Virus record (IMG/VR): IMGVR_UViG_3300046615_000768
Coordinates: 1-64,000 of that record
DNA from: a virus
Taxonomy: Duplodnaviria; Caudoviricetes
Reading direction: 5' to 3' (one strand)
DNA length: 64,000 nt
The notes under the pieces are model-generated. The model was not told the origin of the DNA. It made no database searches and was given only the letters and a program-made list of their open reading frames with translations. The position numbers and the translations under genes were made by a program. Shown one piece after another: positions 5,869-46,526 of the stretch (position 1 is its first letter; the number at the start of each line of letters is the position of its first letter).

Positions 5869-6380
5869 TCGTCCTCCCCGAGTATGATCGGCTCGCCTTC
5901 GGCCGCGTTAAAGGTCAGGAACATTTGCCCATCCAGCTCGCCGGCCAGGTCGCCGAGGAAGCACAGGCGGTCGCCGGGCTCGGCTTCGAGGACCGCGTCG
6001 ATGACCTTCTCGCGCAGCGGCGTCTTGCCAACCTTGAGTTCGCGCACGACGAGCCGGCCCTTGTCGGCCAACTGGTCATCCATGCAGGCGGGCAGGCGCA
6101 TGAGCGCGTCGACCGCAGCCTGGCCGACCGGCGTCATCAGGATCTCGCCCGATGGTTCGAGGTGCCCGCCGGCCCAGCAGCACAGCACGCGGCCGGTGGC
6201 GTTGCCGCGCGAGGCCGTGGTCTGGAACACGGACAGCGTGATCTGCACGTCCTTGTCAACGTCGGCCGGGCGAATTGCGTCCAGCAGCGCGGGGTCGCAT
6301 TCGGCGCCGAAGATCATGCGTGAAACAATCATCGAATCGTTCATCTGGTTCTCACTGGATTGGGTGTTCGCCGGTTTCAC
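5865..6380 (-). CDS. Hypothetical protein
   Basis: Coupled start and stop with neighbours. Confidence 0.6.
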   Translation of the reverse strand: MKPANTQSSENQMNDSMIVSRMIFGAECDPALLDAIRPADVDKDVQITLSVFQTTASRGNATGRVLCCWAGGHLEPSGEILMTPVGQAAVDALMRLPACMDDQLADKGRLVVRELKVGKTPLREKVIDAVLEAEPGDRLCFLGDLAGELDGQMFLTFNAAEGEPIILGEDE

Positions 6381-6678
6381 GCTCGATCTCGGCGATCATC
6401 TGCGCGGCTTCTTCGCCTTCGACCTTCTTGATCACGCTGTTTCCGAGCCCGAGCCCAACCAGAAAGTCGTTGAGCGTGCGCATGAACATTTCGTCACGGT
6501 CCTCGCCTCTCGATGCCTCGTTCTCGACGAGGCGATTTGCAAACAGACCGAACAGGTGTATCGCCATGCGCGGGTGCATTTCCATCCGCAACATCATGTT
6601 CCCGATCGTCTCCAGGAATTCCTTTGATATCGCCGCTGCCTCATCAGGGGTGCGGTCGGGTTTAGCTTGGTCTGACAT
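6352..6678 (-). CDS. Hypothetical protein, paralog of 5587-5868
   Basis: HPRMAIHLFG...FLVGLG. Confidence 0.65.
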   Translation of the reverse strand: MSDQAKPDRTPDEAAAISKEFLETIGNMMLRMEMHPRMAIHLFGLFANRLVENEASRGEDRDEMFMRTLNDFLVGLGLGNSVIKKVEGEEAAQMIAEIERETGEHPIQ

Positions 6679-6690
6679 TTTTGGTCCTAG

Positions 6691-7065
6691 TTATTTGCGT
6701 GGAATGATCCACTGCGTGGTGATGAGCAAGCAGAACGCCGACATGGCCGCGATAACCCAGCTCCCTTCGATGACCGCGTTGATCGTGGCATAGGCGTTGC
6801 TGATTCCCGTCACCCACTGCAAGACGAGAAGCGTCCGGCGTCGGGCCCACCACGGGCGGGGCTGGTCCGATACCGGGCTATGGAGCAGGACCCCGACCTG
6901 TTCCAGCACGGCGTCGGCCTCTTGCAGCAGCATCGCCTGACGCCTGGTGTTCAGGAAGCGCACGATCGGGTGCTTGTCCGGGCTCTTCAATGCCTTGGCC
7001 CGTTCGAGCAGGGCTTCTGCACGGGCCAGCAGCTCGACCACCTGTGCGCCGTCGTTCATCGCCAT
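6691..7065 (-). CDS. Hypothetical membrane protein
   Basis: Start MAMNDG overlaps the upstream TGA; two C-terminal hydrophobic helices. Confidence 0.55.
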   Translation of the reverse strand: MAMNDGAQVVELLARAEALLERAKALKSPDKHPIVRFLNTRRQAMLLQEADAVLEQVGVLLHSPVSDQPRPWWARRRTLLVLQWVTGISNAYATINAVIEGSWVIAAMSAFCLLITTQWIIPRK

Positions 7066-7379
7066 CAATGTTTCCTCACCGGGATCGCCTCGGCCTTCAC
7101 GTCCCCGTCCTCGCCGTCGTCGACCACCTGGATGATCCCGCTCGGCATGTGCAGCACTTGCAGGAACTCGCGCAACATCATCGTGCGCGCCTGATCCAGG
7201 GTCATCTTCGGCTCGCGCGACATCACACTTGCCGCCACCCCGCGACAGGCCAGGGACAGCGCAGCCACCGAATGCAGCCACGGCATGTCCCCGTATTCCG
7301 GCTTGCCGACCGTCTCGATCAGGTCCGCGGCCAGTTTCGTCGTCAGTTCGGCCTGCTCTTCCGTCATGCCCCGCGTCAT
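7065..7379 (-). CDS. Hypothetical protein
   Basis: Operon packing. Confidence 0.6.
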   Translation of the reverse strand: MTRGMTEEQAELTTKLAADLIETVGKPEYGDMPWLHSVAALSLACRGVAASVMSREPKMTLDQARTMMLREFLQVLHMPSGIIQVVDDGEDGDVKAEAIPVRKH

Positions 7380-20306: not shown

Positions 20307-20580
20307 CACCAGCAATAAGACAGCGCACTGGTCGGATCGGAAGACGGCAGCGGTGCGTAGTGAGGCCCCTACTGTGGGATCTGTTTCTGAAACAGGGGCG
20401 ATCGGCGGCGAAGACAGCACCGATGAAACGAAAGGCTGTCACGTCATGCGGCTCCGTCGGAGGGGAAGCGTGTAAAGGCAGGCGTAGGAAGGCTACGTCT
20501 GCCCACCATCAGAGGCAACGGGTTTAGCAGGCGGTAGCACAGAGCTAGAAGGCATGCAGTACCACTAACCAGGGGAACAA

Positions 20581-43124: not shown

Positions 43125-44162
43125 ATGGCAGACAGCGCTATCCAACCGGACGTGCAGGAAGCAGCAGCAACCGTCGTAACCGAAGTACCGAAAACCCCAC
43201 GCGAGCTGGCTCTTGAACAGCTCGAACAGCGTCACCAGCAGCAGATGGCCGAATCGAACGGCTACGAGCTGCCGATGGACGACGACGATCCGGCGCCGGC
43301 GCCGCAAGCACAGCCCGAGAAGGTCGACCAGCTCGCCGCGCAGATGGCCGACCCGGTCGTGACCGAGACGCCGGACCGTGTGCGCATCAAGGTCGACGGC
43401 GTCGAAACCGACGTGCCGCTCGATGAAGTGGTGCGCCAGTACCAGAAGCACAGCAGCGCGGACCGCCGCCTGGCCGAAGCGACGCGCCTCCTGCGCGAAG
43501 CCGAAGCCACCCAGGCACGGATCGCACAGGAAGCGCAGGAAGCACAGCTGCGCGCGCAGCAGAACCAGCAACAGCCGCAGCAGCAGGCGGCAGCATCGGA
43601 AGCAGGAACCGACGCTCCAGAGACGGAAGCGTCAGGCAAGGAATTCCTCAAGGCCCTCTTCGAGGGTGACGAGGAGAACGCGTTGGCAGCGTTGCAGAAG
43701 GTTGTGGGAGGACGGCAGCAGGCGCAAGCGCCCGCGCCCACCCTCGACATCGACCAGATCGCACAGGCCGTCACGCACCAAGTGCAGCAAAAGCTCGTCG
43801 TAGAGAGTGCATTGACGCAGAACCAGCAGACGTACCCCGAGTTGTATAGCGATCCCGATATGGAAGCCCTCGCCCTCACCAAGATCCAGCGCCTGCGCGA
43901 GCAGACCGGCACCGATTTTCTCAGTGCCCTGGACACCGTGAGCCGCGACATGGCAACCAAGTTCGGATGGAGCGCGCATGCAGACCAGGGCCGACAGGCT
44001 GATCCTGCACCGACCACATCGAACCGAACGGCAAAGCTGGATGCAAAGCGACAGATCGACAACGTCTCGTCGGTCAACACAAAAACCACGAGCAGCGAAG
44101 TGCAGCCCGAAAATCCAAGCGACGTGATCGCGGCGATGAAGGCGGCACGCGCGGGCGCGTGA
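43125..44162 (+). CDS. Capsid scaffolding protein
   Basis: Acidic, Gln-rich coiled coil, IKVDGVETDVPLDEV, immediately before the capsid gene. Confidence 0.75.
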   Translation: MADSAIQPDVQEAAATVVTEVPKTPRELALEQLEQRHQQQMAESNGYELPMDDDDPAPAPQAQPEKVDQLAAQMADPVVTETPDRVRIKVDGVETDVPLDEVVRQYQKHSSADRRLAEATRLLREAEATQARIAQEAQEAQLRAQQNQQQPQQQAAASEAGTDAPETEASGKEFLKALFEGDEENALAALQKVVGGRQQAQAPAPTLDIDQIAQAVTHQVQQKLVVESALTQNQQTYPELYSDPDMEALALTKIQRLREQTGTDFLSALDTVSRDMATKFGWSAHADQGRQADPAPTTSNRTAKLDAKRQIDNVSSVNTKTTSSEVQPENPSDVIAAMKAARAGA

Positions 44163-44191
44163 TCCATCTTTCTTACTAGGAGTACACAATC

Positions 44192-45902
44192 ATGGCAGGT
44201 CAAGTCTGGCTCACCAACAGCCTGGGTAAATGAAAGCTGCCCCGTCGCCGAGCAATCGGTGACTGATAATTGCGTGAATTGACAGGGAACCCCGACCGCG
44301 TAAAGGCGAGGGCAATCTGCAGCCAAGCGCCGCGCAAGCGGTGAAGGTTCAACGATCATCCCCGAGGGGGGAGTAGGGCCAAGTGGCCCGAAGCGCGCAA
44401 CGTCCCAAGCGGACGATGAAATGATCTGGTCTTGCAGGTAACTGCAAGCTGCCGATGTGGGAATCGGCGGCGCCGGCGTAACGACCCGGCGTGAACTCAT
44501 CAGGGCTATATGTGGTCCCCCAACCTCTCCAAAGTGCTGCGCATGGCAGTGCAGCCCCTCACCAAGTTCCGCCAGTTCAGCGACATCAAGGATGCCGCTG
44601 TCCAGGGCAAGGGCATGGGCGAGGCGTTCCATTAACATACTGGTGGAACTAAAACCGACTCTGATTGACTTCAACCCCCGGCAGCGGGAAAGAAGGGGCA
44701 AGCAAGCCGCAAGGCTGTGCAGCCTGAGAGACTAAGCGAGTTGGCCCCGGCAACGGGGATGCGATAGTCCGAACACGGCATATAACCTGATGAAAGCCGT
44801 GAGGTGGCAGAAATGACCACCCGCCAGCGTCAACCACGCTGGTCATCAAGTAACAGACTGTGGAACGTTTACAGCGATGTGGCAACGCAAGGCACCACCC
44901 TCACCGAGGGCGTCGCCATGCCGACCACGAACTTCGTGATCACGCAGGGCACGATGACGGTCACGGAACTCGGCAATAGTGTTCCGTACAGCTCCAAGCT
45001 GGACGACCTGTCGGAGCAGCCGGTCAAAGAGATCATCTCGAAGGTGTTGAAAAATGACGCGAAAAAGGCGTTCGACACCGCAGCCGAGGCGCAGTTCCGC
45101 CTCACGCCGCTGCGCGTCGTGCCAACCGGCGGCACCTCCACCAGCTCGGTCACGTTGACCACCAACGGCACCGCCGCTGCGGCCAACAACGTCGCTCTGG
45201 GCAAGAACCACGTGAAGTCGATCGTCGACATCATGAAAGAACGAAACGTGCCGCCGTATCTGCAGGACGACTACATTTCGCTCGCCCACCCGACGACCTT
45301 CCGCCAGGTGAAGAACGATCTGGAGCAGGTCCACCAGTACGTCGATCAGGGTTTCCAAATGATCCTGAACGGCGAGATCGGCCGATACGAAAGTGTCCGC
45401 TTCGTGGAGCAGACCAACATCAGCAAGAGGGGCTTCGCATCGGGCGCCTCGAACTGGGCGTATTTTTTTGGGGCCGATACCGTGGCAGAAGGCATCGTTA
45501 TTCCTGAGGAGATGCGCGGGATGATCCCAGGCGACTACGGTCGTCAGCGTGGCGTGGCATGGTACTACTTGGGTAAATAACACTGCCCCGTTCTGGCGAA
45601 AGCCAGGACTGATAACTTCGTGAACTCAGGGGAACTCCCACCCGCACCATGCGGAGGACAATCCTGATCTGAGCCCCGCAAGGGGAAAGAGCAACGACCA
45701 TCCCGGAAGCGGGAGTAGGGCCAAGCGGCCCGAAGTGCGAAGCGCCTTCACTGGCGATGATATGGTCTGATCTTGCAGGTAACTGCAAGCTGCCGAGAGG
45801 CGGCGCAGGGAGTAGCGACCCGGCGTGAACATAATGGGTTTCGGTATCGTCCACACCAACCCGCAGCAGTCGCGGATCGTGATGTGGGACTCGACGACCT
45901 AA
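44192..45902 (+). CDS. Major capsid protein (N4-gp56-like), spliced: join(44192-44227, 44504-44632, 44861-45574, 45837-45902), 314 aa
   Basis: RBS AGGAG; the joined exons read MAGQVWLTNSLG|GYMWSPNLSKVLRMAVQPLTKFRQF...GEAFH|WNVYSDVATQG...GNSVPY...GEIGRYESVRFVEQ...DYGRQRGVAWYYLG|GFGIVH...WDSTT*, all in frame. Confidence 0.9.
44228..44503 (+). ncRNA. Group I intron 1 (276 nt, no ORF; has P7.1/P7.2, IA-like)
   Basis: 5' exon ends in U and the intron ends in G; P1 GGGU/GCCC; P2 with GCAA loop; P3 UUGCGUG/CGCGCAA; P7 GAUCA (44354) / UGAUC (44422); P9 CUUGCAG-GUAA-CUGCAAG. Confidence 0.9.
44633..44860 (+). ncRNA. Group I intron 2 (228 nt, no ORF; lacks P7.1/P7.2)
   Basis: P1 UUCCAU/GUGGAA with a terminal U.G pair; P3 CCGACUC/GAGUUGG; canonical P7 GACUA (44730) / UAGUC (44765); P8 with GCAA loop; terminal G at 44860. 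Confidence 0.9.
45575..45836 (+). ncRNA. Group I intron 3 (262 nt, no ORF; sister of intron 1)
   Basis: 5' exon ends GGU; P2 with GAAA loop; P3 CUUCGUG/UGCGAAG; P7 GACCA (45696) / UGGUC (45763); P7.2 GGGCC-AAGC-GGCCC; same P9 as intron 1; terminal G at 45836. Confidence 0.9.
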
Positions 45903-45921
45903 CAGTCGTCGGCGTCACCTG

Positions 45922-45953
45922 AAAGCCTGTCCCTTCGGGGGCAGGCTTTTTTT
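45922..45953 (+). terminator. Rho-independent terminator after the capsid gene
   Basis: AAAGCCTGTCCC-TTCG-GGGGCAGGCTTT followed by a T-run. Confidence 0.85.
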
Positions 45954-45970: not shown

Positions 45971-46450
45971 CTAGTGGACCTTCGGATTCGGCTTGGCCGA
46001 TGCGAAGAGCTTCAGGACATCATCCGCAGCGCCGTCACCGAACATGCAATCCTCGGACAACGCCTGGTCCACTTCGCAGTAAGCGTCAAGCGCCTTGCAG
46101 GCGCGCGCAAACGATAAGACGAGCGACCCAGCCATCGAATACGGGTGGGCCACGTCCAGATCAAGCTCACTGCCGGCGAAGTGCATCGCCGTCGCCACCA
46201 CGTGATGCACCTCGATATACGGGTTCATGTATTGCGAACCAGGAGCGGCACCCTCGTCGGCCACGCGCACGGCGTCCCGGATGACCGCCCTCGCCGCTGA
46301 AAAGGCGGAAAGAACATCGCGGGTAGCAGCGAGCGTGTCGCCGTCATAGGCCTTTGCGCTCTTGATGCACTCGTGCGCCGCGCTCAATGCCCGCAGCGCG
46401 ATTGCATCGTTTTCAGCTTCCGAAAATTGAAGCCATTCCGTTTTTTCCAT
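45971..46450 (-). CDS. Moron-like hypothetical protein on the opposite strand
   Basis: Isolated minus-strand ORF that shares the bidirectional terminator; different codon usage. Confidence 0.5.
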   Translation of the reverse strand: MEKTEWLQFSEAENDAIALRALSAAHECIKSAKAYDGDTLAATRDVLSAFSAARAVIRDAVRVADEGAAPGSQYMNPYIEVHHVVATAMHFAGSELDLDVAHPYSMAGSLVLSFARACKALDAYCEVDQALSEDCMFGDGAADDVLKLFASAKPNPKVH

Positions 46451-46526
46451 GTGCCGCTCCATCAGGTTGGGGAGCGCCGATTCTAGCCGTAGTTGTGACC
46501 AAAAGAAACGCTACAAGGAGATTATT

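Follow-up and report, generated by a model that had tools for sequence, protein, structure and literature searches.

The window analysed in this work is the whole stretch of 64,000 nucleotides (nt) formed by positions 1 to 64,000 of the virus record IMGVR_UViG_3300046615_000768 of IMG/VR (Duplodnaviria; Caudoviricetes), a provirus record of 79.8 kb that is about 80% complete, the stretch being mostly covered by one rhizosphere metagenome run. On its + strand, at 44192-45902, lies a gene for a major capsid protein of 314 amino acids (aa) that is divided into four exons by three introns, and it is the origin and kinship of the first and third of these introns that concern us here. Both are group I introns of one large phage family and both stand at the same target sequence. 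Our results suggest that each of them is a local copy of an older lineage that keeps to its own site, that the introns spread between phages as DNA, and that the long identical blocks in their 3' parts arose by gene conversion within this gene; we put the probability of this account as a whole at about 0.7.

A capsid gene with three introns

Removal of the three introns gives a coding sequence (CDS) of 945 nt (314 aa) that is colinear with uninterrupted homologues. When the spliced protein was compared with IMG/VR contigs, most of these carried the gene without interruption; the closest relative, L002, has an uninterrupted gene and shares 97% aa identity over residues 1-314. In the intron-bearing relatives, excision of the predicted introns yielded a colinear 945-nt CDS every time. 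The intron junctions (Table 1) are fixed by this colinearity of the spliced CDS, in the window and in its relatives, with the intronless homologues. In terms of codons, site 1 is the 12/13 junction and site 3 the 293/294 junction. The product of exon 3 shares about 55% identity with Vibrio phage capsid proteins, 47-51% with the capsid proteins of the coliphages PTXU04, Pondi and HelliStehle and 69-97% with that of 80 IMG/VR contigs. Several public annotations shorten or split this capsid gene, for example that of Vibrio phage 1.232.O.

Table 1. Exons, introns and intron elements of the capsid gene, with positions in the window
Feature	Positions	Strand	Description	Basis
Exon 1	44192-44227	+	12 codons, ends Leu-Gly with GGT	Colinearity with intronless homologues
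Intron 1	44228-44503	+	276 nt, group I without open reading frame, IA2-like, site-1 lineage	RF00028, orthologues, covariation
Intron 1, internal guide	44239-44242	+	GCCC, pairs with exon GGGU to form P1	Folding
Intron 1, P7 5' strand	44354-44358	+	GAUCA	Pairs with UGAUC at 44422-44426
Intron 1, 26-nt block	44430-44455	+	J7/9, P9 and start of P9.1	Identical to 45771-45796 in intron 3
Intron 1, 15-nt block	44482-44496	+	P9.2	Identical to 45816-45830 in intron 3
Exon 2	44504-44632	+	43 codons	Colinearity with intronless homologues
Intron 2	44633-44860	+	228 nt, without open reading frame, different family	Colinearity and orthologues
Exon 3	44861-45574	+	238 codons, ends Tyr-Tyr-Leu-Gly with GGT	Capsid homologues
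Intron 3	45575-45836	+	262 nt, group I without open reading frame, site-3 lineage	RF00028, orthologues
Intron 3, internal guide	45585-45588	+	GCCC	Folding
Intron 3, P7 5' strand	45696-45700	+	GACCA	Pairs with UGGUC at 45763-45767
Exon 4	45837-45902	+	21 codons and stop	Colinearity with intronless homologues

Introns 1 and 3 are group I introns at matching target sites

Introns 1 and 3 scored 51.2 and 52.9 bits against the Rfam family RF00028, which has a gathering score of 50; each terminates in G and its precise excision restores the reading frame. They are genuine group I introns, and their splicing is predicted. TGGGT precedes both 5' splice sites and GG starts both 3' exons, the two junctions being 1347 nt apart, and TGGGTGG occurs in the spliced CDS at these two junctions only. 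The two sites are alike only over the guide-pairing bases TGGGT|GG, their flanks otherwise differing; 9 of the 12 bases around the junction are common to both. Folding across the boundaries gave the same 5-bp P1 in both introns, in which GGGUA pairs with UGCCC and a U-G wobble falls at the splice site, followed by P2. A P10 can be drawn by eye, where GG of the 3' exon can pair with CU just upstream of the guide and which in intron 1 extends to 4 bp (GGCU/AGCU). At position -1 all intron-bearing alleles have GGT and most empty alleles GGC. The target is rare in the empty alleles, GGGTGG being present in 2 of the 75 for site 1 and in 3 of the 79 for site 3. Intronless site-3 DNA comes in CTGGGCGGC and CTGGGTGGC forms.

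We annotated the structure by hand, P2 to P9.2 with the P7 pseudoknot included, using eight aligned introns of the family, all of them from these capsid genes; RNAalifold was set aside because it matched the guide to the 3' strand of P9.1 and has no means of representing a pseudoknot such as P7. The resulting fold comprises 72 pairs in 14 helices with 94% of the cells paired, and 35 of the 72 pairs show double changes. None of 500 shuffles reached the observed value and slid controls were only 35-42% paired. In P7 the five pairs are intact in all eight sequences and two of them covary (CG:6/UA:2 and CG:5/UA:3); all changes fall in pairs 3 and 4, and at the guanosine-binding end a G-C and an A-U pair are invariant. 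Between P7 and the 3' strand of P3 we found two further hairpins, P7.1 and P7.2, with 90% of the cells paired, which appear in the Rfam alignment as an insertion after P7. Their presence makes introns 1 and 3 look IA2-like. Taken together the covariation supports selection on the intron fold.

Much of this had been noticed in an earlier, sequence-only reading of the window. Its five named blocks are all present in both introns, and intron 1 matches intron 3 at E=2e-33. The matching TGGGT|GG (Leu-Gly|Gly) sites that it placed about 1.3 kb apart are borne out. Its description of P7, as GAUCA/UGAUC in intron 1, GACCA/UGGUC in intron 3 and GACUA/UAGUC in intron 2 with pairing kept by double substitutions, proved correct, and its proposal that the structure is under selection agrees with the double changes and the shuffling control above.

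Each site has its own intron lineage

Introns 1 and 3 are full-length members (239-241 bits) of one family defined by a hidden Markov model (HMM). The profile, built from eight capsid introns, gave 171 family matches, among them introns in the DNA-polymerase genes of Xanthomonas and Ralstonia phages, and the block GGAGTAGGGCCAAGYGGCCCGAAG alone occurs in more than 118 IMG/VR contigs. Many IMG/VR contigs hold two to four family introns within 1-2 kb (four in L147; also L099, L095, L205, L125, L130 and L154). The co-resident introns of L147 have differing guides and target sequences, unlike the pair in the window.

Between introns 1 and 3 the identity is 67% over the full length and 74% over the conserved core columns. 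The survey of related phages that had been suggested with the sequence-only reading mapped presence and absence and gave each of the two sites an orthologue lineage of its own. At site 1 the orthologues are those of L008, L009, L011 and L012, which are 76-81% identical to intron 1; at site 3 they are those of L085 (92% identical to intron 3), L021 (77-78%), L087, L211, L213, L113, L194, L212 and L214. Identity from site 3 to site 3 is 77-92% and between sites 1 and 3 it is 65-67%. Any duplication from one site to the other must therefore be old, since identity within a site is 76-92% against about 67% between sites, and the placement of related introns at both sites appears long to predate this phage. 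An intron at site 3 is found even in capsid genes with no more than 37-65% aa identity (L211, L087, L213, L214), and one at site 1 only in capsid genes at least 83% identical; site 3 looks the older and the more widely used of the two.

A maximum-likelihood tree was made from 78 distinct family introns over 239 columns of a sequence-only profile (HMM) alignment, which replaced a MAFFT alignment in which the intron of Xanthomonas phage CP1 was misaligned around its large insert. The site-1 clade had a support of 100 and the site-3 clade without L087 a support of 58. The two clades are separate in this tree; forcing them together costs 14.6 log-likelihood units and is not rejected (approximately unbiased (AU) test, p=0.18), and a forced union that includes L087 is rejected (p=0.03). 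Over the core columns intron 3 is 74% identical to the polymerase intron of Ralstonia phage BOESR1, and intron 1 is 73% identical to an intron of an unrelated contig. When the introns were compared domain by domain, the P2 of the site-1 introns was nearest that of the site-3 introns, guide and P1 loop being likewise common to both lineages (18 of 18 nt of the P1 loop are the same between the site-1 intron of L009 and the site-3 intron of L085), whereas the P3-P6 core of each lineage was nearest introns in other genes. What links introns 1 and 3 specifically is the 5' guide module, the core not being distinctive.

These results qualify the kinship proposed from the sequence alone. Introns 1 and 3 do belong to one family, as their description as sisters implied, yet the tree leaves their lineages apart and their core identity of 74% equals that of intron 3 with the BOESR1 intron. 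The expectation that they would be closer to each other than to unrelated group I introns holds for the guide, P1 and P2, which they share, and fails for the core, in which they are no closer to each other than to introns of other genes. The long blocks put forward as evidence of kinship are present, but one of them is family-wide and the two in the 3' part look like products of gene conversion, as described below.

A mosaic pattern in the 3' part of intron 1

The 26-nt and 15-nt blocks of Table 1 are identical between the two introns of the window. In the other site-1 introns the 26-nt block shows 6-7 differences and the 15-nt block in P9.2 is not shared. Over P9 introns 1 and 3 of the window are 100% identical and over P9.1-P9.2 they are 84% identical, and here too the other site-1 introns do not match. 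To describe the pattern we used the sites at which intron 1 agrees with either a site-1 orthologue or a site-3 intron and not with both. The intron-3-like sites of intron 1 cluster in two patches, 44430-44455 and 44482-44496. Permutation gave p <0.0001 to 0.009 with a runs test and p 0.00015-0.04 with summed squared run lengths, two statistics that were chosen post hoc and with values that are optimistic because paired changes in stems are not independent. P9 types are in addition patchy across the site-1 and site-3 lineages. We infer that the identical 3' blocks are best read as gene conversion between two co-resident introns.

Endonuclease genes and the spread of the introns

Introns 1 and 3 of the window (262-276 nt) contain no endonuclease open reading frame (ORF). 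Four of the site-3 orthologues do: the introns of L113, L194, L212 and L214 are 759-795 nt long and hold an ORF of 164-190 aa in the P9.1 loop. Pfam recognised HNH_3 in the ORFs of L113 and L194, to which those of L212 and L214 are 53-67% identical, and all four are 51-58% identical to the free-standing HNH protein of Vibrio phage 1.232.O. The endonuclease-free group formed by intron 3 of the window, L085 and L211 is nested among these HNH-bearing members with a support of 92-94. From this nesting, intron 3 of the window most likely descends from a mobile intron the endonuclease gene of which was lost.

Further evidence for movement as DNA, indirect in the case of site 1, came from the exons around introns 1 and 2. 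Exon 1 of the window is 100% identical in DNA sequence to that of the intron-bearing L009 and L011, whereas over the whole CDS the identity is only about 80%. L009, interrupted at sites 1 and 2, and the intronless L010 are 96% identical, and 27 of their 37 differences lie in CDS nt 21-174, the tract flanking introns 1 and 2, where they include C/T at position -1 of both sites. It is a clear tract of co-conversion. The concentration of the differences in exon DNA that flanks the introns indicates that spread between phages is DNA-based. The sequence-only reading had held that the family colonised a second site by reverse splicing rather than by endonuclease homing; as far as spread between phages is concerned this exclusion is contradicted by the HNH genes at site 3 and by the co-converted tract of L009 and L010. 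DNA contigs from the rhizosphere metagenome named above also yielded, for window positions 44100-45950, intronless alleles of all three sites, and one such allele had a depth of about 254 against about 8-12 for the intron-bearing form.

In the 79.8-kb record there was no homologue of HNH_3, HNH, GIY-YIG or LAGLIDADG. A match of the L113 HNH protein in the portal gene region (E=0.01, 27% identity) was dismissed as chance. Scans of IMG/VR, metagenome and genome contigs gave no site-1 intron with an endonuclease gene; those for the shared 5' end added one new contig each from the metagenome and the genome contigs.

Intron 2 belongs to a different family and had no match to RF00028 even at E<=1; we call it an intron because of its colinearity with intronless homologues and because it has orthologues. 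Its guide is GUGGAA, for the exon sequence UUCCAU. The orthologues in L009, L011 and L012 are 93% identical to it, and at 618-1371 of L021 we found a site-2 orthologue of 754 nt with a LAGLIDADG-like ORF. A further member of this family lies at 2208-2440 of L008, where it follows UUCCGU between codons 35 and 36, 60 nt upstream of the site of intron 2 in the window. The L008 intron is 78% identical to intron 2 and has the guide GCGGAA instead of GUGGAA, a change that matches that of its site.

A proposed history of the two introns

Family membership, the two site lineages, DNA-based spread and the mosaic pattern are well supported, and together they lead us to propose the following history. Introns 1 and 3 would be intact, nuclease-free ribozymes of a large IA2-like phage family characterised by P7.1 and P7.2, each of them a local copy of an older lineage faithful to its site in this group of capsid genes. 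Both lineages need and occupy TGGGT|GG because their guide, GCCC, is the same and their P1 loops and P2 helices resemble each other. The site-3 lineage probably owes, or once owed, its mobility to an HNH homing endonuclease whose gene lies in the P9.1 loop, intron 3 of the window being a descendant without the former HNH gene. Introns 1 and 2 travel as DNA, accompanied by flanking exon sequence that is converted along with them. The long identical 3' blocks probably arose by gene conversion between introns 1 and 3 of the window, on top of a core that is conserved family-wide.

Several points weigh against this account. The introns of the window are known from DNA alone. The tree has 239 columns and weak deep support, 58 for the site-3 clade without L087. 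A maximum chi-square test for a single exchanged segment was marginal (p 0.01-0.2) because the intron-3-like sites form two separate patches, and their clustering in stems could partly reflect paired, non-independent changes. Finally, all five site-1 introns are without an endonuclease gene, and the record is without HNH, GIY-YIG and LAGLIDADG genes, so that the role of an endonuclease at site 1 is indirect.

The founding of site 1

How a family member came to stand at site 1 is a separate question. That the two introns are unrelated, and alike by chance or by generic conservation of group I introns, is refuted: the block GGAGTAGGGCCAAGYGGCCCGAAG and the J8/7-P7 region are indeed conserved across the family, but a match at E=2e-33, full-length family membership of both introns and a common guide and P1 loop leave this reading next to no probability. 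Three routes then come into consideration, and we regard them as roughly comparable. The match between the sites, which is expected under every one of them, fails to discriminate, since any copy of an intron must pair with the exon in order to splice. In the route proposed by the sequence-only reading, RNA of a site-3-type intron would have entered the capsid mRNA by reverse splicing at its second GGGU|GG, been reverse-transcribed and been recombined into the gene, with no endonuclease involved. In its favour, the likeness of the two sites goes no further than the guide-pairing bases, the guide is identical, the P1 loop nearly so and P2 similar in both lineages, and all five site-1 introns are without an ORF. 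A parallel pair exists in the intron-2 family, which occupies UUCCAU| and UUCCGU| with a matching change in the guide, and related introns at two sites of one gene are ranked as the best circumstantial evidence for this route in PMC3984707. Against it, the tree keeps the lineages apart and their P3-P6 cores have different nearest relatives, the site-3 lineage is endonuclease-driven, the GCCC guide also occurs in family introns of unrelated genes (for example L156 and L130), and the 79.8-kb record, about 80% complete, has no match to a reverse transcriptase (RVT_1). The pathway is moreover described as being without direct experimental evidence (PMC3984707). On balance we consider reverse splicing an unlikely origin of the intron at site 1.

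The HNH endonucleases of the site-3 lineage offer another route, in which such an enzyme cut or nicked site 1 as a look-alike of its own site (YTGGGTGGYT), repair copied the intron in, and the endonuclease gene was later lost. Many homing enzymes tolerate sequence variation. HNH-bearing site-3 introns are present in four phages, 9 of the 12 junction bases are common to both sites, and flanks were co-converted in the spread of the site-1 and site-2 introns; relaxed specificity of an endonuclease is also given as an alternative route to new sites in PMC3984707. Ectopic homing remains doubtful to us nonetheless, as the scans of IMG/VR, metagenomes and genomes gave no endonuclease-bearing site-1 intron and the core phylogeny puts the site-1 introns outside the site-3 lineage. 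In the third route different family members would have invaded sites 1 and 3 independently and later exchanged the P1/P2 module and the 3' blocks, through recombination between introns living in the same genome. The P2 of the site-1 introns is closest to site-3 introns and their P3-P6 closest to introns of other genes (77% against at most 73%), among site-1 introns that of the window alone has P9 and P9.2 matching intron 3, P9 types are patchy across the lineages, and the two to four family introns in many contigs give scope for exchange. Yet the domains compared are short (19-81 columns) and the differences in identity small, joined lineages are not rejected (AU p=0.18), and a working guide would have been needed at site 1 before any swap, so that we hold independent invasion as tentatively as ectopic homing.

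Comparison with known systems

Group I introns, homing endonucleases and phage genes with several introns are well known, and the element itself is therefore ordinary. The closest precedent is orf142 of Staphylococcus phage Twort (Landthaler and Shub 1999), which according to the accounts in PMC10136302 and PMC11878797 is a late structural gene interrupted by three group I introns that lack an ORF; two of these are IA2 introns of high similarity, and exon skipping occurs. The window resembles it, as there described, in that a single structural gene of a phage holds several group I introns without an ORF, and in the scope for exon skipping. Introns 1 and 3 are both in phase 0, and their guide and Leu-Gly|Gly flanks are identical; a direct junction of exon 1 with exon 4 (44227/45837) would therefore be in frame, and Twort-type skipping that gives a 33-aa product is possible. 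Unlike in orf142, for which those accounts give 23 nt, the two related introns of the window are 1.3 kb apart with one guide and one target heptamer; related phages here show empty sites and endonuclease-bearing forms, and our system is seen only at the DNA level.

The introns treated here share P7.1/P7.2, a patchy distribution and co-converted flanks with the introns of T4 td, nrdB and nrdD and with HNH-bearing polymerase introns such as that of I-PfoP3I (PMC3428280), and as in the HNH-bearing phage IA2 introns of the latter work the site-3 orthologues hold an HNH ORF in a peripheral loop. They differ from these in that the copies in the window are ORF-less, the record is without an endonuclease gene, and the host is a capsid gene and not one of nucleotide metabolism or replication. 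ORF-less introns served by a free-standing endonuclease are known as collaborative homing, reviewed in PMC3984707. Vibrio phage 1.232.O (L001, MG592596, 1342-3140) shows a similar arrangement: it has an unannotated ORF-less family intron (83 bits) 11 nt upstream of site 3, and a free-standing HNH gene just downstream of the capsid gene. The deposited capsid CDS of 1.232.O ends at the 5' splice site of this intron and the last exon is unannotated. In the window, unlike in 1.232.O, no free-standing endonuclease gene adjoins the capsid gene; the ORF directly downstream of it, at 45971-46462 on the - strand (163 aa), has no Pfam match and by this measure does not encode an endonuclease.

In ribosomal DNA (rDNA), the presence of related group I introns at two positions has been regarded as circumstantial support for reverse splicing (Bhattacharya et al. 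2005, as cited in PMC3984707). In the terms in which that review reports it, the rDNA case is like ours in that related introns lie at two sites of one gene which are alike over 4-6 guide-pairing bases, and unlike it in that we deal with a protein-coding phage gene and with one lineage that is demonstrably associated with an endonuclease. Capsid genes with group I introns are also described in the Cluster J mycobacteriophage, where capsid and tail genes carry them (PMC3706429); to judge from that description, both the phage group and the intron family are different.

The value of the present case lies in the comparative set, in which empty, ORF-less and endonuclease-bearing forms of the same sites occur in one family of capsid genes. 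The set also contains a clear co-conversion tract, indications that introns residing together have undergone gene conversion, and two cases in which related introns occupy sites matched by their guides. It offers defined substrates on which RNA-level and endonuclease-level transposition could be compared. If site 1 was founded by a site-3-type intron that reverse-spliced into the one other GGGU|GG of the capsid mRNA and was then fixed as DNA, which we think improbable, we would have a natural case of a group I intron transposed at the RNA level, under the direction of its guide, within a phage gene that codes for protein; the two sites of the intron-2 family, UUCCAU| and UUCCGU|, would then count as another case from the same family of genes.

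Further observations

Insertion of introns into this gene is not limited to the three sites of the window. In the capsid gene family we counted at least seven insertion points, near codons 12/13, ~30, 35/36, ~53, 55/56, ~275, ~289 and 293/294. The capsid gene of L214, a contig of a metagenome-assembled genome of Bryobacterales, has three family introns, and L211 and L213 also contribute insertion points. The capsid gene of L062 has an HNH-bearing intron and that of L029 an intron of LAGLIDADG type. In L194 a further insertion of about 820 nt (6250-7070) lies near capsid codon 96, with an HNH (PF01844) ORF on the opposite strand; it may be an intron or else a free-standing endonuclease gene that splits the capsid gene. 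Elsewhere in the window, at 20321-20444 on the + strand, Rfam recognised a Betaproteobacteria-1 RNA (RF02932) with 85.5 bits.

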